Origin: Perna viridis
Lineage: Eukaryota
Assembly (NCBI GenBank): GCA_037379345.1
Contig: CM074522.1
Span: 310,001 to 374,000 of the forward strand
Direction: 5' to 3'
Length of the DNA stretch: 64,000 nucleotides
A program made the translations under genes and the position numbers. This document shows, piece by piece, positions 7,098-59,920 of this stretch. A model generated the notes under the pieces. The model worked only from the letters and a program-made list of their open reading frames with translations. It had not been told where the DNA came from and made no database searches. Position 1 is the stretch's first letter. Each line of letters begins with the position of its first letter.

Positions 7098-8360
7098 TAA
7101 ACAGGTTCCAGTAGTTACGTTCCTTAAAAAATTGTGAAATCTATATTTTCATTGAAGATCGAGATCGAAACAGTTTAAATCTAAGAATGTGACTTGAATT
7201 TACTTTATGTAAAAACTTCAATTAAACGAAGAGGTATTTTGATATATTGGTGAAATAAATCAAATAAACCAAATTTTTTTTTTAATTGTGTCACGTACGT
7301 CTCCATTAAGATCGTCACTTCAAACCACTTTTAGAACTGTGAAATAAAGTAGACATTTATTATATCAATATATGTTAATGTAGGATGAAACCGTTATGAG
7401 AAATGACAGAAATATTGTTTCCAAAATTTCAATCGACCAGTATTGACCACTGTGGGAATATTGACAGGGTGTCTTAAAGACCAGTAAAAATCTGGGACGA
7501 TTATAACCGCTCAAACGTTATTTTTGCTTGATTTTGCACGAAATTATATGTACATATAAAAATATTTCTCAACAAGAGGAGGTTTCTGTACTTCCATATC
7601 ACTTGGTTAAAGTACATGTACATGTATATTTTCATGGATTTACATTGTAATATATATTGCGTTTATTAAAGACATTGTTATGATTTTTCCTTGATCTTTT
7701 TTCAGTGGTTATCACTTAGAAGATTCACTAGATGTAGTGAGAAGAAACCAAACGCAAAACGGACCATTTTTGTGCTGGGACACTATTTACGCATGAAGCA
7801 AAGTCAATGATTCTCACTGGAGATCATATTTTTGAAGAAATGCTGATTTGAGTGTAAAGTGACAATAAATTTGAGGACATAAACGTACATAGCCAGGAAT
7901 ACCAAAAGCAACAGTACAAAAGAAGATCCAGAAATACATGTAATAAACAGGCAATATAGCAGACATGCAATGATTATTCTTCAAAATGACTAAGTTATTG
8001 ATCCGATAATTTAGCTTACAATTTGATAACACAAATATTTTTTTTTTTTATAAATGTGAGGTCTTCTTTGACTCAGTGCCTCAGCACTTTGATTTCCAAA
8101 AGTCATCATTTTCTAATATGACGTGCTTCAAAGCTCTTTTGACCACAGCCATGGTAAAAAATGATAAACTCATAATTGACATTTCGTGCAACTCATAGGC
8201 TACGTCTATTAAAACATATGAAGACACTAGTCCCATCAGAATCGAAATAAGTCATGGAAACTCCATTTTATAATTGTTTTACCACGGGCTATCACCCGGT
8301 ATAAAACAATGTGACATAAATGGCCAGCCCGTAGTAATTCAATGGAACATGCCAACGGTC

Positions 8361-8634
8361 ATCTTTCCTCTTTCGTCTACCCTGGACTTGACTTTTTGTG
8401 AGCAACTCGGTGGGTGTTTCTAGAAAAGCAGAGGACGCTTACCCTACCGGTGCACCTGGTCCATGCTCCCAGTTTTTAGGGGAGTCCGAGTTGCTCATTT
8501 ACTTTTGTTACTTTATATATATTATTTTAGTACTTTATGTTCTTTGTTGTGATTGTCTGTTTTGCATGTCTGATCTTTGTCCCTGAATTACATGTGATTT
8601 CCGCTAGAATCTTGGTTCCCTTGACTACTCTTTC
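8361..8634 (+). mobile_element. Penelope-like element 3' end (family A, copy 1)
   Basis: Same sequence as the 3' parts of 18313-18953, 29232-29725, 35506-36070 and 38505-38830. Confidence 0.8.
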
Positions 8635-9091
8635 TAAACAGAAGAGTCATACACAATAGACATATCCAAAGAAAGTCAACTCCAATATTGGTAAAAACAA
8701 ATACCGAGGCGTGAATGATGGGACAATTCAAAATTCTAAAACAGGAGACACAGACGATCTACATACATAATGTAGCAAATAGATATCATATAAAAACTGA
8801 AGAGAAGGAAATCAAGAAGTAACACTAAACAAATTAAAGCACTAACACTATGAACTCCCACAAAAAAACAACAAAAAAAAAAACGACACTGACATCAGGT
8901 TCTTCGGAAGGGTAAAAACGTGCCCAGATTCGTCAGTGGAACTCGTTATTTAGATGTTCTCTGTGCACCTCATTAAATATTAAACCCATGTAAATATTCT
9001 AAACAATATATTTTAAATAAACAAAAATATATTTTTTTAAATATTTTGAAACATAACCATATTACTGTCTTTTTTCAAGTTTTTAATATAT

Positions 9092-9275
9092 AAATTCCCA
9101 ACGATGTTAGAACTGTCAAATTTGCAATGCAAAGTCCAGGCGGTGTTGCCATAGATGTCACAGCGGTACGAGTTCGAGTCCCGCGGAGGGAACGACCAAG
9201 AATTTGCATTGCAAATTTGACAGTTCTAACATCGTTGGGAATTTTTCAGACCTTTCTATATATATATATATATAT
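9092..9275 (+). mobile_element. tRNA-derived SINE fragment with (TA)n tail and an inverted copy of its 3' part
   Basis: B-box GAGTTCGAGTCCC at 9170-9182; 42-bp perfect inverted repeat 9092-9133/9203-9244. Confidence 0.7.
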
Positions 9276-9689
9276 TATAAATTTATCTCCGAAAATGACT
9301 TTATTCCAGCGCATCTGAATACATGTATAATATGTAAAATGTGTATGTTTTTGTAAATGAAACATTTAGCAATGATTGGAACGTTATTGACTATGATGTT
9401 ATCAATAAGGTTTTGTAATCTATGACATATAAAAACACGTCTCTTGAAGGTAATATTTCGGATATGTCATAACCACGTTATTTGAAAAATGAATACGTGT
9501 TCCTACTGTGCATATGGATAATTCTAAAGATCAGATTTAAAAACAGTAACAACAAATACATATTTAAAATTTCTTGATCCTTTGCAAAGTAATCCCGAGA
9601 AATCCATTAATTAGACATATAGTCAACAACTGCGTTCCATACAATATTGTTTTCCACACGTCAGATTTACCTATCATGTAAATATTGAA

Positions 9690-9752
9690 TTGAAGATGTC
9701 GATAGTTTGGATAACTTAGATGTCGAGTTGTGTTTATATTTTGCCTTTAAAT
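9690..9752 (+). other. Candidate first non-coding exon of the TIMP-like gene (5' end uncertain)
   Basis: Donor aaat|GTGAGT at 9753 upstream of the micro-exon. Confidence 0.35.
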
Positions 9753-10132
9753 GTGAGTATTTTGTTATTTACTGTTCATCTGAAATCCAAATATTGTTCA
9801 TGATGTAATGAATGATAAACTCCGAGAATGTTAAGCTACGAAGGATTGTAACGAAAATTAGAGAATGTACGGTGCGCCAAACTAACATATAAATGAATCG
9901 ACTATGAACAGAGCTTTGACATTAGCAAATTGGCTTGTCACATGTATGAACACATTTAAATTCGTCGAATTTTCCGGCAATTACGTCAATCAAGTCATGG
10001 AGATGCAATTTAGCAGTAATACAATCTTATAATTATGGTAGAAATAAAGCTGTTGTAGATAATTTTGAAGGTCAATCAAATAATAACATATTTTGATATT
10101 TTGAAAACTTAACTGTAATTTTAGTTTTCCAG

Positions 10133-10156
10133 GATCTTATCAAATAACACTGAAAG
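10133..10156 (+). other. Candidate 24-nt 5'UTR micro-exon of the TIMP-like gene
   Basis: ttagttttccAG|gatcttatcaaataacactgaaag|GTAAGC; strong splice sites at both ends. Confidence 0.55.
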
Positions 10157-10806
10157 GTAAGCTTCATACTGTGGTAATACTTTATAAGAACTTTATACGT
10201 ATAGGTACATATTGAGCAGTTTAAAAAAGGAAATTAAGACATTTAGAACTACTCACCTCAATATGAGAAAATGATTTGGCGCGGTTCTTTTCATTAAAAC
10301 AAAATATTAGTAGTGAAGTACTAACAGGCAATTTTTTGTCACAGAATTAGAGCACTTGATATACAAGTAAATTTAAATACAATTGTTATAAAAAAATTGC
10401 AAAGGTGATAGAAGTTGGAAACCATAAAACAGTATTCATGTACATGTACTTTTTGTAAAATAGAGATGGAGGATAAGCAAGCTCTTCTATATACATGTAT
10501 ATGTTGCTTAATTACTATTGGTTAAACGTACATGCATATGTTTTATTATAACTTTATTGTACTTGTGGTAACAATCCTACATGTAGAATTTTTTTACCAA
10601 AATAATCAGATTCTTGTCAAGAATTGTTGATACGAGATCAATCTGGTTATAACTTTTATTTACTTATTGATACTGAATGGGAAGAAATTAATTCATGAAG
10701 ACAATAATTAACTGAAAATCAAATGCCAAAAATTATGATCAGTATTGTTCTGTTAAATATCAAGAATGATGTACTGTAGTTTGTTCTAATTTAAGTGTGA
10801 CAGAAT

Positions 10807-10939
10807 ATGCTATTAACTGGAACGTTAGCGTTGCTGGTTCTACTTATCCCAAATGCAGAGTTATGCGAGTGTGATGCGAAAGACAAAGAATGGCTGCAAG
10901 GAAAGCTTGTGCCGAAAAGTCTGTGTACAAGTCCACAGA
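10807..10939 (+). CDS. TIMP-like coding exon 1 (signal peptide + CEC...C)
   Basis: Acceptor tgacAG at 10802-10803, ATG at 10807, donor CAGA|GTAAGT at 10940. Confidence 0.88.
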
Positions 10940-13900
10940 GTAAGTGTACGCTGTAGTCTTTAGAGTAGTTCTATGTCATATAGTTCACAAAGGAAGTCTA
11001 TGAACCCGTCCATCAAGTAAGTTTATATGCTAGTCCACAGAGTAAGTCTATTTTCTTGCCGACTAAGTATTCCTGTAATGGATCCAGAAATTTATAAAAA
11101 AAAAAAAAAAAAAAAAAAAAGGTATATTTATACTGGCTATCCATAGCTCAATTTTCCCCAAATATTGTAGAGAGCCTTCCAACAAAAGGATTCCCAAACC
11201 CTGACACCCCCACTAGTATCTTCCAATGTGTCCACAGAGTATTAGCTCTACTTTACAGAGTGCATATTTTAGTCAATAGTGATCCTGTGTTCTCGTCCTT
11301 GGGTACTTAAATGTGTTGGTCCACTTATTAAATGAAGCTGTGTTCAAGTCCACTGAGTTAGTCAATGCGCTGGCTTACAGAGTAATTCTATGTTCTAGTC
11401 CACAGCATACTCTAGCCCATGGTATTGGACTATGCAAGTAAGCGGATGCTCTTGTCCATAGCGTTAGACTGTGCTCAAGTCCACAGAGTTGCCCTATACT
11501 CTAGTTAGCAGAGTAAGTCAATGTTCTTGTCCACAGAGTAAGTCTACTCCCTAGTCAATAGTCCACAAAGTAAGTCTATGCTCTAGTCCACGGAGTAAGC
11601 CATCTCTCTAGTCCATAGAGTAAGTCTTTGGTCTAGTCCGCAAAGTAAATCTATGCTCTAGTCCACGGAGTAAGCCATCTCTCTAGTCCACAGAGTAAGT
11701 CTTTGGTCTAGTCCACAGATTAAGTAAACGTTCAAGTCAACAGAAAAGTGGATGCTGTAGTCCATACAGTTAAACTATGCTATAGTCCTAGTACATGTAT
11801 TTCACACTAAACTGTTGAATTGTGTATTAGTTTAATTTTATTGATTTTCAATTATAGTAATAGAGGTTGACGTAACAGGAGTTGACGATGGTCCGGAGGA
11901 GATGTTGGACTACAAGGTACAGGTCATCAACGTGTTAAGGGTAAGCATCCGAAAACTAGGAATTCGTGTTGTTTGTCTGTCATTTTGTTAACAAAACATT
12001 ACCCAGTTTATCCGTGATTTGTAGTGATTTTGATAGTAGAGCAAGGATACTTAGTCTAGTTTCTTTATATTTTTAAAATACATATTATGGCGACATTTAT
12101 GGGGCAGAATTCTTTTATGTCGTCGGTTTATTGAGTAAAACTTATCTATCACGTCAGAAATAAGACGTGATGTCTATGACTTCATCAAAGTTTTACCATG
12201 GCTGTAGTCTCAACGCCTTTAAAGGGCGTCATGCATGTATTAGAAATGTATTATAATGTCAAATAAGCTTCTATATGATGGTAAAACATATGTGTTAAGC
12301 CTAAGTTACTATGTTAACTATTGAAATTTTATGGTAATCATCTCGATTTGATTGTTCCATATTAATTATTTTGTTAGATCAAACTTACCGGATTGACAAC
12401 TAGTCGAACTCTCCGCCTGCCGGATTTTACTTGCAATGTACATTTGCATAAAATGAAATTATTTCACTACCATGCATTGATGTTTTTTCTGTCGGCCATT
12501 TTTGGGAAACATTTTTGTACAGTACATAATATGAAATTTTAGAGATTCAGGAAAGAATCAGTTCAATTTAATTCCAAAATGAAAGTTTTTCATAACAGGA
12601 AACAGAAATTAAACAAAACAAACAAATAACCGAAATAAAATATTGTGATTATTGTGGTGTTCATTTGCATTAGTATTTCAAAATGATTGTTCTAGATTCA
12701 CATTCAGCATCTATATTCCTTTGACCTCTCAACTGCCAAAAATACCGACCTTTGGTAACAATTAAACCTACTGGAACTCTTCTATTTCAGGGTAGCTTAA
12801 ATAAGGAACAAAATAAAGGATCTGTGTTGGTTCCCCTTGCTGAACCACCGTGCTATGAGGACTTTATTATGGAGAAAGGACAAAAATATGTACTCGCCGG
12901 TATTGTTATATGTTATTGGACTATTTTTTTCCTGTCTAGTTTTCGATTTATTATATTTTTTTATTCAAAAATACAATAAAAAGTCCACAGTACAAGATAC
13001 TGTTACTGTTGATAATGAAAATTAATTACTGTAATTATCGACAGTCAAATATTGTTACTGCTATTGTTGACAATAAAAATCGTTACTCTGATTGTCGACA
13101 ACAATAATTCGTACTGCTATTGTCGATCGTATATATAGAAATACCACTCATATAAATATTGCAAATTTTATTTTGTTGTTGTGCCTGTCCCAAGTCAGAA
13201 ATTTCTGGCCTCTGTATGTCTTGTTTCGGTTTCACTCTCAGATTACTTTTATGCTGCCGGAGTATATAAGCTCAACTATTTCGTTGCACCTGTGTATAAT
13301 GTTGTTTTATGGCCAGCTGCAGCCTGCCCAATGGTATGAGAGTTTCCTCGTCGTTTGTTGAAGACCCATGGGTAGCATTGAGCTGACATTTTCCATCCTG
13401 GTGGGATTGTTGTTTCTTATATACATTCCCTTTATATTCAATGAGTAACATCTTATCAGCAGCGTTATAACCAAATACTTAGGAAGTTTTAGATTCAGAG
13501 ACAGGAAACCAAATACAGCATCGTTATATTTTTGTCGACAGTAAAAGATCGTTACTGTTTTTGTAGACAGTAAAATATTGTTATACATGTACTGTTTTTG
13601 TCGACAGTACAAGATCGTTACTGTTTTTGTAGACAGTAAAATATTGTTACTGTTTTTGTCAACAGTGAAATATTAAGTTACACGGATTGTACTCTTATTC
13701 AAACTTCAATTTTGTGTTGAAAATTATGGAAATTCATATAGTGGTTCAATTTCTTGTCATTGTACTGTCCTGTCATCAAGGTGTATCTCTAAAGAAACTC
13801 TAGATAAGTTTTATTAATTACATTTTTTTTTATTTTAAGTATTGACAATGAAATCAGTTACATGTTTTGAGTTACTGGCTGACATGTTTTTTTAATTAAA

Positions 13901-14032
13901 CTTTTTTTTCTTTTTCCTTCAGTTGACACAATTGGATCTTATATGGTTTTGAATCATTGTAATTTTGCTGCAGACGTTCGAGATTTGACAAGTATAGAGA
14001 GGACTGCGATCATTAACGGGTGCTACAAATAG
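10807..14032 (+). CDS. TIMP: Spliced gene, join(10807..10939,11858..11940,12791..12899,13923..14032): 144-aa secreted TIMP-like (NTR/TIMP N-domain only) protein
   Basis: GT-AG introns in phases 1,0,1 give a 435-nt open frame: MLLTGTLALLVLLIPNAELCECDAKDKEWLQGKLVPKSLCTSPQIIEVDVTGVDDGPEEMLDYKVQVINVLRGSLNKEQNKGSVLVPLAEPPCYEDFIMEKGQKYVLAVDTIGSYMVLNHCNFAADVRDLTSIERTAIINGCYK*. It has a hydrophobic signal peptide, CxC, six Cys (20,22,40,93,121,142) and motifs IEVDV (VIRAK-like), YKVQV, GQKYVLA, CNF..LT..ER. The symbol denotes the family, not a specific orthologue. Confidence 0.88.
10925..11790. repeat. Degenerate ~25-bp minisatellite (ctagtccacagagtaagtctatgct) overlapping the TIMP exon-1 donor
   Basis: Many tandem copies; interrupted by a polyA-containing MITE-like remnant at ~11073-11228. 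Confidence 0.85.
11858..11940 (+). CDS. TIMP-like coding exon 2
   Basis: ttttcaattatAG| ... AGG|GTAAGC; encodes IIEVDVTGVDDGPEEMLDYKVQVINVLR. Confidence 0.88.
12791..12899 (+). CDS. TIMP-like coding exon 3
   Basis: tctatttcAG| ... GCCG|GTATTG; encodes GSLN...PPCYEDFIMEKGQKYVLA (core of ORF 12752..12979). Confidence 0.85.
12995..13675. repeat. ~28-bp minisatellite (gttactgtttttgtcgacagtaaaatatt) in two blocks
   Basis: Blocks at 12995-13130 and 13520-13675. Confidence 0.75.
13165..13445 (+). mobile_element. Interspersed repeat (family B) interrupting a 28-bp minisatellite in TIMP intron 3
   Basis: 13310-13430 matches the reverse complement of 47960-48075. Confidence 0.65.
13923..14032 (+). 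CDS. TIMP-like coding exon 4 (terminal, stop TAG 14030-14032)
   Basis: Long pyrimidine tract tttttttctttttccttcAG|; encodes VDTIGSYMVLNHCNFAADVRDLTSIERTAIINGCYK*. Confidence 0.87.
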
Positions 14033-14469
14033 AGCAAGTCTGTAATCATTGACGGGTGCTAAAGATAGTGCAGGATTGTTTTATTCAAAATCTTATGACA
14101 TCTGTTTATTGTTTGTATATAAATTGTCATTGTAATGCAAAAAATATTTCACTTCATAAATAATTGACTAATTTTTTTCTTTCTTTTTTTATGTATTATC
14201 TTAATAACAAATCATAATAGAACCTATGGTAGAAAGACAATTGTTGGGTTAACACCACAGATTTTGACATGTCTTATTCATTATTTCATATATTTTAGTT
14301 GCACTTCATAGGTGTTCCCTGTAGGGGTGTGATATAGGGAATGCAATATAGGTCTAGGGTGTGATACATGTAGGGTAATCGATATAGGGTTTAAACAGTT
14401 CTTTATATCAATGACATATATTCACACTAAAATATAACTTTTTGTATATGCATTATATGTAATTGTTTA

Positions 14470-31184: not shown

Positions 31185-32530
31185 TTTACTGAAACAACTA
31201 AGCCCGTACAGTGAAGTTAACTGAAACAGAACTAGCCCGTACAGTGAAGTTTACTGAAACAGAACTAGCCCGTACAGTGAAGTTTACTGAAACAGAACTA
31301 AGCCCATACAGTGAAGTTAACTGAAACAGAACTAGCCCATACAGTGAAGTTTACTGAAACAGAACTAACCCGTACAGTGAAGTGTACTGAAACAGAACTA
31401 AGCCCATACAGTGAAGTTTACTGAAACAGAACTAGCCCGTACAGTGAAGTTTACTGAAACAGAACTAGCCCGTACAGTGAAGTTAACTGAAACAGAACTA
31501 GCCCGTACAGTGAAGTTTACTGAAACAGAACTAGCCTGTACAGTGAAGTTTACTGAAACAGAACTAACCCATACAGTGTAGTTAACTGAAACAGAACTAG
31601 CCCATACAGTGAAGTTTACTGAAACAGAACTAAGCCCATACAGTGAAGTTAACTGAAACAGAACTAACCCGTACAGTGTAGTTAACTGAAACAGAACTAG
31701 CCCGTACAGTGAAGTTTACTGAAACAGAACTAACCTGTACAGTGTAGTTAACTGAAACAGAACTAGCCCGTACAGTGAAGTTTACTGAAACAGAACTAGC
31801 CCGTACAGTGAAGTTTACTGAAACAGAACTAAGCCCATACAGTGAAGTTAACTGAAACAGAACTAGCCCATACAGTGAAGTTAACTGAAACAGAACTAAC
31901 CCGTACAGTGAAGTTTACTGAAACAGAACTAACCCGTACAGTGAAGCCTTTATAGTGAAGTTAACTGAAACAGAACTAGCCTGTACAGTGAAGTTTACTG
32001 AAACAGAACTAACCCGTACAGTGTAGTTAACTGAAACAGAACTAGCCCATACAGTGAAGTTTATTGAAACAGAACTAAGCCCATACAGTGAAGTTAACTG
32101 AAACAGAACTAACCCGTACAGTGTAGTTAACTGAAACAGAACTAGCCTGTACAGTGAAGTTTACTGAAACAGAACTAACCCGTACAGTGTAGTTAACTGA
32201 AACAGAACTAGCCCGTACAGTGAAGTTTACTGAAACAGAACTAACCCGTACAGTGTAGTTAACTGAAACAGAACTAGCCTGTACAGTGAAGTTTACTGAA
32301 ACAGAACTAACCCGTACAGTGTAGTTAACTGAAACAGAACTAAGCCCATACAGTGAAGTTAACTGAAACAGAACTAGCCCATACAGTGAAGTTTACTGAA
32401 ACAGAACTAGCCCGTACAGTGAAGTTTACTGAAACAGAACTAAGCCCATACAGTGAAGTTAACTGAAACAGAACTAACCTGTACAGTGTAGTTAACTGAA
32501 ACAGAACTAACCCGTACAATGAAGTTTACT
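31185..32530. repeat. 33-bp minisatellite
   Basis: tactgaaacagaactagcccgtacagtgaagtt, ~40 copies. Confidence 0.97.
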
Positions 32531-57087: not shown

Positions 57088-59920
57088 TACTGGACAGACA
57101 CAAAACTCCAACTGATACTGAAGAGACACTAAATTCCAACTGATACTGGACAGACGCTAAATTTCAACTGATACTGGACAGACACTTAATTTCAACTGAT
57201 AATGGACAGACACTAAATTCTAACTGATACTGAACAGACACTTAATTTCAATTGATACTGGACAGACACTTAATATCAACTGATATTGGAGAGACATTTA
57301 ATTACAACTGATACTGGACAGACACTTAAATTCAACTGATAATGGACAGACACTAAATATCAACTGGTACTGGACAGACACTTAATTTCAACTGATACTG
57401 GACAGACACTTAATTTCAGCTGATACTGGACAGACACTAAATTCTAACTGATACTGAACAGACACTTAATTTCAACTGATACTGGACAGACACTTAATAT
57501 CAACTGGTACTGGACAGACACTTAATTTCAACTGATACTGGACAGACACTTAATTTCAACTGATACTGGACAGACACTAAATTCCAACTGATATTGGAGA
57601 GACACTAAATTTCAACTGATACTGGACAGACACTTAATTTCAACTGATACTGGACAAACACTTAATTCTAACTGATACTGGACAGACACTTAATTTCAAC
57701 TGATACTGGACAGACACTAAATTTCAACTGATACAGGACAGACACCTAATTTCAACTGATACTGAACAGACACTTAATTTCAACTGATACTGGACAGACA
57801 CTTAATTTCAACTAATACTGGGCAGACATTAAATTCCAACTGATAATGGACAGACACTAAATTCTAACTAATACTGGACAGACACTAAATTTCAACTGAT
57901 ACTGGACAGACACTTAATTTCAACTGATACCGGACACACATATAATTCCAACTGATACTGGACAGATACTTAATTTCAACTGATACTAGACAGACACTAA
58001 ATTTCAACTGATACAGGACAGACACCTAATTTCAACTGATACTGGACAGACACTTAATTTCAACTGATACTGGACGGACACTTAATTTCAACTAATACTG
58101 GGCAGACATTAAATTCCAACTGATACTGGACAGACACTAAATTTCAACTGATACAGGACAGACACCTAATTTCAACTGATACTGGATGGACACTTAATTT
58201 CAACTACAACTGGACAGACACTTAGTTTCAACTAATACCGGGCAGACATTAAATTCTAACTAATACTGGACAGACACTAAATTTCAACTGATACAGGACA
58301 GACACCTAATTTCAACTGATACTGGATGGACACTTAATTTCAACTAATACTGGACAGACACTTAGTTTCAACTGATACTGGACAGACACTTAATTTCAAC
58401 TGATACTGGACGGACACTTAATTTCAACTGATACTGGACGGACACTTAATTTCAACTGATACTGGACAGACACTTAATTTTAACTGATACTGGACAGACA
58501 CTAAACTTCAACTAATAATGGACAGACACTAAATTCTAACTGATACTGGACAGACACTTAATTTCAACTGATAGTGGACAGACGCTTAATTTCAACTGAT
58601 GCTGGATGGACACTTAATTTCAGCTAATACTGGACAGACATTAAAATCCAACTGATACTGGACAGACACTAAATTTAAACTGATACTGGACACACACTAA
58701 ATTTCAACTAATACCAGACAGACATTAAATTCCAACTGATACTGGAGGGACACTAAATTCCAACTGATACTGGACAGACACTAAATTTCAACTGATACTG
58801 GACAGACATTTAATTGCAACTGATACTGGACAAACACTTAATTCTAACTGATACTGGACAGACACTTAATTTCAACTGATACTGGACAGACACCATATTC
58901 CAACTGATACTGGACAGACAAAAAATTTAATCTGATTCTGAATAGACAACTAATTTCAACTGATACTGGACAGACGTTACATTCTAATTGATACTGCACA
59001 GACACTAAATTGAACTGATACTTGACAGACACTTAATTTCAACTGATAATGGACAGACACTAAATTTCAACTGATAATGGACAGACACTAAATTTCAACT
59101 GATACTGAACAGACACTTAATTTCAACTGATACTGGACAGACCCTAAATTTCAACTGATAATGGACAGACACTAAATTCTAACTAATACTGGACAGACAC
59201 TTAGTTTCAACTGATACTGAACAGACACTTAATTTCAACTGATACCGGACACACATTAAATTCCAACTGATACTGGACAGACACTTAATTTCAACTGATA
59301 CTAGACAGACACTAAATTTCAACTAATACTGGGCAGACATTAAATTCCAACTGATACTGGATGGACACTAAATTCCAACTGATACTGGACAGACACTTAA
59401 TTTCAACTGATACAGGACAGACACATAATTTCAACTGATACTGGATGGACACTTAATTTCAACTAATACTGGACAGACACTTAGTTTCAACTGATACTGG
59501 ACGGACACTTAATTTCAACTGATACTGGACAGACATTAAATTCCAACTGATGCTGGACAGACACTTAATTTTAACTGATACTGGACAGACACTAAACTTC
59601 AACTGATAATGGACAGACACTAAATTCTAACTGATACTGGACAGACACTTAATTTCAACTGATAGTGGACAGACATTAAATTCCAACTGATACTGGACAG
59701 ACACTTAATTCCAACTGATACTGGACACACACTAAATTTCAACTAATACCAGACAGACATTAAATTCCAACTGATACTGGCGGGACATTAAATTCCAACT
59801 GTTACTGGACAGACACTAAATTTCAACTGATACTGGACAGACACTTAAATTCCAACTGATACTGGACAGACACTAAATTTCAACTGATACTGGACAGACA
59901 CTTAAATTCCAACCAATACT
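57088..59920. repeat. 28-bp minisatellite, ~100 copies
   Basis: gatactggacagacacttaatttcaact. Confidence 0.98.

Follow-up and report, generated by a model that had tools for sequence, protein, structure and literature searches.

This report deals with positions 310,001 to 374,000 of contig CM074522.1 (C12) of Perna viridis (assembly GCA_037379345.1), an animal genome of 723 Mb in 46 contigs. The whole stretch of 64,000 nucleotides, with a GC content of about 33%, is referred to as the window, and positions are counted from its first letter unless another contig or locus is named. Within it, a spliced and expressed gene was identified on the plus strand, which encodes a small protein related to the N-domain of the TIMP family. 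The features of the gene are as follows.

9681..9752, plus strand: 5' untranslated region (UTR) exon A, with an approximate 5' end; joints with GT..AG ends lead from 9752 to 10125 (11 reads) and from 9752 to 10796 (9 reads, short side at most 72 letters)
10125..10156, plus strand: 5' UTR exon B, alternatively included (skipped in 9 reads)
10796..10939, plus strand: coding exon 1, coding from 10807 (residues 1-44), with a phase-1 donor
10807..10863, plus strand: predicted signal peptide, residues 1-19, with an uncertain cut after Ala17 or Leu19 and a hydropathy peak of 3.7 at residue 11
10864..10872, plus strand: Cys-Glu-Cys, counterpart of the TIMP Cys1-X-Cys3, aligning with the C-x-C of the paralogs
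10873..10926, plus strand: 17-residue spacer with WLQ, eight residues longer than the canonical nine, and Cys40, the likely counterpart of Cys13
11858..11940, plus strand: coding exon 2, phase 1 to 0, with the predicted strands A and B of the NTR barrel (profile alignment)
12791..12899, plus strand: coding exon 3, phase 0 to 1, with Pro91-Pro92-Cys93 at 12845-12853
13923..14032, plus strand: coding exon 4, with Cys121 at 13958, Cys142 at 14021 and the stop codon TAG at 14030-14032
14033..14164, plus strand: 3' UTR, contiguous with exon 4; the end is a lower bound (contigs of run X1 reach 14141, of X5 14144 and of X7 14164)

Gene structure and expression

The four coding exons are joined at GT..AG ends to 435 nt, coding for 144 amino acids and a stop, with introns in phases 1, 0 and 1 and Cys residues at positions 20, 22, 40, 93, 121 and 142. 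The ATG at 10807 is the first in-frame start, since an in-frame TGA is located at 10798, three codons before it. This splicing pattern had been proposed from the letters of the DNA (the sequence-only reading), and the three coding junctions were found in RNA exactly as proposed.

The transcript evidence is derived from seven runs of seven studies, out of 24 runs listed. Six of these consist of contigs, for which the RNA nature is guessed or unrecorded, and one, X21, is a raw stranded RNA run. In X21, junctions 1, 2 and 3 were crossed by 11, 19 and 17 reads from 9, 13 and 14 start places, with the first mate always on the minus strand, as expected for plus strand RNA; the depth at the gene was about 10-20, using 19% of the run. 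Junction 2 was a listed joint in all seven runs and junctions 1 and 3 in six each, with run X13 containing the latter two only as loose ends of 16 and 20 letters. A single contig of 642 nt, from a run with all three joints, has exons 1, 3 and 4 through to position 14164 among its listed pieces. No indel or stop within the coding exons is listed in the reads and contigs of the seven runs. Three coding variants were seen: residue 115 is His in the reads and Tyr in the window (seven of seven runs, X13 by a loose end), residue 144 is Arg in five of the six runs that cover the position, and residue 25 is Arg in 17 of 21 X21 reads.

For exon B, the joint as listed leads from 10150 to 10793 with five letters between (8 reads, and contigs of five runs); the true joint would be the GT..AG pair from 10156 to 10796. 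Between 9681 and 10810, the 5' UTR contains two out-of-frame upstream ATGs, the second of which begins a frame of 47 or 17 codons, depending on the isoform, that extends across the main start in either case. An insertion of two nucleotides at 10146, present in some runs, would alter the frame of the upstream ATG.

Homology to the TIMP N-domain

None of the four exons taken singly matches any Pfam family at E<=10, while seven of eight fourth exons of paralogs match PF00965. The sequence-only reading of a hidden gene is supported, and the gene is expressed. A search of the genome gave 16 PF00965 matches among 18 candidates, and the gene is absent from them. From these TIMP loci, a set of 16 paralog first exons and 13 four-exon N-domain models was assembled, which is a lower bound.

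Against a profile of nine paralogs, the mature product scored 30.3 bits, a value reached by none of 4870 plain and none of 4886 Cys-fixed shuffles (those reported of 5000 each; maxima 13.2 and 12.9 bits). With a corrected profile of eight canonical paralogs it scored 22.9 bits, again above all shuffles (0 of 4854 reported of 5000, maximum 9.8). On this profile it is the lowest of 14 sequences, five held-out divergent paralogs scoring 54.5-69.5 bits.

The product might instead be a stand-alone NTR domain (netrin, sFRP, complement C345C, PCOLCE), or its likeness to TIMPs a matter of chance. Some results indeed weigh against TIMP descent. Besides the failure of the single exons in Pfam and the absence of the gene from the PF00965 matches, the same canonical profile gives 19.1 and 16.8 bits to two PF01759 domains of the genome, whose loci we take to be netrin-like or sFRP-like. 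These scores are near that of the product, so that the profile score alone shows membership in the NTR superfamily only. In addition, blastp gave E values below 1e-4 for only two of the 13 paralogs. What decides for TIMP descent are the introns, the N-terminus and the blastp ranking. The places and phases of the three introns, given as TIMP-like in the sequence-only reading, are shared by all 13 paralog models, whereas the two PF01759 domains sit in single open frames of 87-97 residues. The C-x-C stands right behind the leader, and the two best E values to TIMP paralogs, 8e-6 and 1.8e-5, compare with 3.5 and 18 to the two PF01759 domains. An origin outside the TIMPs is therefore highly improbable, and, judged from these comparisons, the product is homologous to the TIMP N-domain and TIMP-derived.

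All six Cys residues align with Cys residues of the paralogs, Cys142 with either the first or the second Cys at the end of exon 4. Disulfides would accordingly be predicted between 20 and 93, 22 and 121, and 40 and 142, corresponding to the TIMP pattern 1-70, 3-99 and 13-124. This scheme is supported by the pairwise loss of Cys residues among the paralogs, which concerns Cys13 with Cys124 in one gene and Cys3 with Cys101 in four. The NTR (OB-type) barrel is predicted to be kept, which agrees with the Cys pattern and with strands in which hydrophobic residues alternate. When the alignments of exons 3 and 4 were used as profiles, human and bovine TIMPs ranked first in the PDB, although these profiles consist mostly of paralog rows (eight of nine and nine of ten), so that the hits are no test of the query alone. 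The columns of exons 3 and 4 map to TIMP-2 residues 58-87 and 93-129; residue numbers were transferred by exon 3 from TIMP-2 and TIMP-3 and by exon 4 from TIMP-1, -2 and -3.

The gene is not part of the synapsin locus, where TIMPs are found in this genome on contig C1. There, two other TIMPs, on the opposite strand, are flanked by synapsin exons at 19.43-19.48 Mb. The nesting of a TIMP in synapsin is an ancestral arrangement according to the title of a reference cited in PMC9409782 (this and all further sources are cited for the parts of their text that were available). These are two TIMP genes and not one that lie between the synapsin exons (C1 19.43-19.49 Mb; L023-L025, L044-L046). Elsewhere, two TIMP paralog exons, L029:2807-2916 and L031:8220-8359, apparently end in GC donors.

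The N-terminus and the inhibitory ridge

The product is likely secreted, as judged from its hydrophobic leader, and the C-x-C directly follows the predicted signal peptide. When 12 cut positions were compared with the simple (-3,-1) rule for signal peptidase, only those after Cys22 and Ala24 passed, both of which would remove paired Cys residues. Neither of the two predicted cuts fits the simple rule: that after Ala17 has Pro at -3, and that after Leu19 has Leu at -1. The Leu before Cys1, which had been pointed out from the sequence, differs from the small residue (Ala, Gly, Ser or Cys) in ten of ten canonical paralogs. A non-small residue is also present at this place in five of six non-canonical paralogs; five of these six genes form one tandem cluster.

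In TIMPs, the zinc of the metalloprotease is bound by the amine and the carbonyl of Cys1, and its S1' pocket receives residue 2 (PMC3003256). Four changes of this inhibitory ridge were found in the product. Besides the Leu before Cys1, residue 2 is Glu and not the Thr or Ser of vertebrate TIMPs. As a departure this residue is weaker than had been claimed, since the ten canonical paralogs have Ser in seven cases and His, Met and Arg in the others, and Glu is also found in one further paralog, L026. The third change is the spacer of 17 residues without HPQ, which stands as described; its WLQ is probably the counterpart of HPQ, a motif that is exact in 12 of 16 paralog first exons and replaced by x-x-Q variants in four. 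The fourth, Pro-Pro before Cys93 in the second half of the ridge, had been overlooked in the sequence-only reading. It is present in one of ten aligned third exons, namely that of the query, and TIMP-2 has Ala-Val before Cys72.

A further difference stressed before, the replacement of VIRAK, is real in that the motif is absent. It carries no weight, because VIRAK is not conserved outside chordates (PMC4807446) and is absent from all 13 paralog models. Likewise, the description of the ridge as non-canonical is supported, and it is weaker as a distinction, given that the ridge is non-canonical in six of 16 paralog first exons.

The product is unlikely to be an ordinary MMP inhibitor of broad range whose only difference is the missing C-domain, as in an N-TIMP. 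Residue 2 is variable in the paralogs and in invertebrate TIMPs in general (PMC8467561), N-domains suffice for inhibition, and nematodes and cnidarians have TIMPs of a single domain (PMC4860685, PMC3679795), all of which would be compatible with such an activity. Set against this are the four ridge departures taken together, none of which is present in the ten canonical paralog first exons or the nine third exons, and the last rank of the product among the 14 sequences on the canonical profile.

The missing C-domain

Contigs pass through the stop codon of exon 4 into the 3' UTR, and no joint leaving exon 4 is listed in the reads and contigs of the seven runs; therefore, the protein ends after one domain, as had been proposed. 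It consists of a leader and a single NTR domain and nothing more. With a C-domain profile, nothing below E 0.48 was found in the window and 20 kb on either side, by a search that was insensitive (6 of 11 leave-one-out controls below E 0.05). In the same region, no TIMP paralog was seen.

All 13 paralog models run past exon 4 by a phase-0 donor, and the stop of the query, two residues after Cys142, lies near the position of this donor. The simplest reading would be a secondary loss of the C-domain. At 14010-14070, about 35 nt from the end of the coding sequence are repeated immediately downstream of the stop codon, and in this copy the Cys codon is followed directly by a stop. A GC-type donor-like word, unused in the reads, starts one nucleotide after the stop of the gene and may be what is left of the donor that exon 4 has lost.

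Divergence and constraint

The identity of the product to the paralogs is 14-26%. In a tree of 14 sequences it is the most diverged one, on the longest branch (3.32 versus a median of 1.28) and without firm placement. The mature protein has an isoelectric point of 4.6, and two of the 13 paralog N-domains are likewise acidic.

Relatives were searched for with single exons of 35-51 residues, which is a weak test of absence. The word-index search gave one candidate for exon 3 and 28 for exon 1, none at E<=10; the exon of a canonical paralog, used as a control, gave 44 candidates and also none at this level, so that this search is insensitive here. When exon 4 was compared by phmmer with 1.84 billion proteins, the sole match, P0001, was a tandem-repeat sequence without TIMP match and was rejected. 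A metagenome scan gave two loci on gene-dense, phage-like contigs sharing one word of nine residues, which were rejected as well. No usable match was obtained in the ESM Atlas for exons 3 and 4. Searches of the genome itself with exons 1, 3 and 4 returned the query gene alone, and tblastn of the product against the TIMP loci of the genome gave nothing below E 1.6.

The gene could be a decaying duplicate, that is, a transcribed TIMP copy which has lost its last exon and drifts without function. The longest branch, the relatives that were not found, the poor signal-peptidase site and the fact that all three observed coding variants are non-synonymous would fit this. However, two of these variants exchange Lys for Arg, and a number of three is too small for a selection test. 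Moreover, the low identity contrasts with the intact frame, the hydrophobic leader, the full set of six Cys residues and the clean splicing in seven runs, which speaks against a drifting copy, and decay is considered very unlikely. The retention of the frame and of all three Cys pairs at such divergence rather points to long-term constraint, with selection acting on a secreted, folded domain.

Possible function

The reading that we prefer, with about as much doubt as confidence, is that of a non-inhibitory, likely secreted, single-domain binding protein of the matrix or of secretions, derived from a TIMP. The gene would have arisen by duplication from a two-domain TIMP of the expanded family in this genome, and a stop arising at the end of exon 4 would have removed the C-domain. 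Drift would have changed the ridge, with the three Cys pairs being kept for the sake of the fold. A possible Glu-Leu extension before Cys1, the Glu at the S1' residue, the eight additional residues of the spacer and the Pro-Pro pair might together weaken docking into the MMP cleft. By analogy, the partner may be a matrix protein, such as collagen or a protein of the byssus or shell matrix.

Several known proteins are in line with this. In the single-domain TIMPs of helminths, an atypical residue 2 was interpreted as pointing to other functions, and hookworm AceES-2 is not inhibitory (PMC3679795). No inhibition was seen with Sbp8-1, a TIMP of the scallop byssus (PMC5975577), and the tensilins of holothurians stiffen collagenous tissue (PMC4807446). 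Further, blocking of the Cys1 amine in TIMPs severely reduced MMP inhibition (PMC3003256).

Other points count against a loss of inhibition. A cut after Leu19 would have Ala at -3 and Pro at -5 and would free Cys1. The zinc is bound by the amine and carbonyl of Cys1 and not by side chains (PMC3003256), an acidic residue 2 is tolerated to the extent that TIMP-2 Ser2Asp/Ser4Ala still inhibits MMP-1 (PMC9409782), and N-domains inhibit by themselves (PMC3679795). The assay of Sbp8-1 was performed with a Trx-fused protein (PMC5975577), and a blocked N-terminus may explain the negative outcome as an artefact.

The main alternative, somewhat less probable, is a metalloprotease inhibitor of narrow range. 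Here, Cys1 would still bind zinc, and Glu2, the longer loop and perhaps an extension of two residues would limit the targets to a few metzincins, be it a microbial metalloprotease, a member of the ADAM or ADAMTS group, or an MMP whose S1' pocket is basic. The C-x-C at the predicted mature end and the full set of six Cys residues are consistent with an inhibitor. The same applies to the Ser2Asp/Ser4Ala variant and to N-terminally extended N-TIMP-3, which is still active on ADAM17 and ADAMTS-4/5 (PMC3003256); L026, weakly grouped with the query (69/81), also begins with Cys-Glu-Cys. However, Ala was the most potent of the residues tested at -1 of an extended TIMP (PMC3003256), and the extension of the query would be Glu-Leu. 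Changes are also present in each half of the ridge, the gene stands on a very long branch, and the single-exon searches gave no conserved relatives.

A more specific proposal combines two ideas and is rather doubtful. By Glu2, the longer loop and the possible Glu-Leu, a minimal TIMP would have been retargeted from MMPs to a few metzincins (ADAM/ADAMTS, astacin or microbial proteases), and the gene would belong to a layer of very diverged single-domain bivalve TIMPs that is missed by censuses based on Pfam.

The satellite of exon 1 and the surroundings of the gene

The end of exon 1 overlaps a repeat:

10917..11744, plus strand: degenerate 25-bp satellite (TRF 11446-11744; genome DNA search)

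Its first unit consists of the last 23 nt of exon 1 and the donor GT. A search of the genome, in which very common words were skipped, gave two matches, both at this locus and the second starting at 10917. An origin of the exon 1 end from a dispersed repeat by exonisation was considered and rejected, as the satellite matches only this locus; most likely, the end of the exon would have been duplicated in tandem by way of a microhomology of 4 nt. Seven further donor-like sites are present in intron 1, and use of such additional donors is not listed in the reads. It was also considered whether the long spacer reflects a frameshift of one nucleotide rescued by a satellite donor, because the other frame reads Lys-Ala-Cys at canonical spacing after Gln31. 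This is not favoured, since no indel is seen in the reads and an additional donor loss would be needed.

The contig measures 38 Mb, and the window, which lies 0.3 Mb from its end, showed no other recognisable gene. A Pfam scan of 37 of its 55 open reading frames, the repeat-derived ones being left out, gave none over the cut-off. At 8360-8635 and 9130-9250, short dispersed repeats show an RNA depth of hundreds to thousands on both strands; a loose end at 9137 is tRNA-like, suggesting a short interspersed element (SINE). ARAGORN found no tRNA gene. Many minisatellite arrays occupy 26453-59909, for example one with a 28-bp unit repeated 101 times at 57088-59909 and one with a 33-bp unit at 31185-32530.

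Diverged TIMP-like genes were also identified on other contigs. L026 (L026:5180-8250, C1 at about 15.986 Mb) is a two-domain gene with a likely extension before Cys-Glu-Cys. On C9 at 39,088,001-39,148,000 (L029-L034), a tandem cluster comprises at least eight TIMP-like genes, with two further copies that are maybe broken. Four modelled members of it (Cys1 at L030:9437, L031:6590, L033:6907 and L034:5790) have kept Cys1 and lost Cys3 and its partner Cys101, and have a Pro-rich start, Glu or Gln before Cys1 and a basic isoelectric point of 9.6-10.1.

Significance

Censuses of mollusc TIMPs rest on matches of annotated proteins to Pfam, PANTHER and PROSITE (PMC10755359), and the escape of the present exons from a genome-wide PF00965 search suggests that TIMP counts can miss the most diverged members. 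The gene can also be regarded as a natural experiment on the TIMP ridge, since the possible extension, the acidic residue 2 and the absence of the C-domain were engineered singly in human TIMPs. The interest is mainly for specialists of TIMPs and of the mollusc matrix, because single-domain and non-inhibitory TIMPs have already been described elsewhere in animals.

Comparison with known TIMPs

With the N-domain of human TIMP-1, -2 and -3 (PF00965), the product shares the six-Cys pattern, the C-x-C after the leader and the columns of exons 3 and 4. Unlike them, it has no C-domain, Glu at position 2, a spacer of 17 residues with WLQ, Pro-Pro before the counterpart of Cys72 and Leu before Cys1, and its last helix is about four residues shorter. 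It is classed as a TIMP-derived single-domain NTR protein and not as a canonical TIMP, from which it departs in the C-domain, HPQ, the spacer and residue 2.

Within the genome, the nearest row in the tree is L026, with weak support (69/81) and about 20% identity. Both have a Cys-Glu-Cys start, a longer spacer, a non-small residue before Cys1 and a Cys-Tyr in exon 3. In contrast to the query, L026 has kept HPQ and the C-domain exon and has lost the Cys13/Cys124 pair.

Single-domain TIMPs have been described for C. elegans, hookworm (Ac-TMP-1/2 and AceES-2), Acropora (AmTIMPe-g) and Hydra (HmTIMPa) (PMC4860685, PMC3679795). Like the product, they are N-domain only and secreted, often with an atypical residue 2 or without the C-x-C, and for Hydra TIMPa a secondary loss of the C-domain was proposed (PMC4860685, PMC3679795). 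They belong to other phyla, the loss was probably independent, and they are likened here by description. Echinoderms also contain many TIMPs, including TIMP-like proteins without C-x-C or HPQ (PMC8467561).

Among bivalves, pteriomorphs have 8-28 canonical TIMP copies (PMC10755359). An expanded family, as here, is also known from the atypical or pseudo-TIMPs, comprising Sbp8-1, the pseudo-TIMPs of Ma et al., the shell PTIMPs, oyster NTRDCP and Unslp6. Pseudo-TIMPs are common in bivalves (PMC10755359). Among the PTIMP/NTR shell proteins of pearl oysters, some are short and may have one domain only. Some atypical bivalve TIMPs have N-terminal changes or no detected inhibition, and links to byssus, shell and immunity were reported (PMC10755359, PMC5975577, PMC4660305, PMC11464482). 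Sbp8-1 has kept 12 Cys residues plus two extra ones, compared with six in the product; five exons were found in 132 of 142 molluscan TIMP sequences (PMC10755359), compared with four coding exons here. In the literature covered, which leaves out most subscription journals, no description of a single-domain bivalve TIMP with this ridge was found. Single-domain and atypical TIMPs are thus already known, and what is new in the present gene is the combination of its changes and the depth of its divergence.

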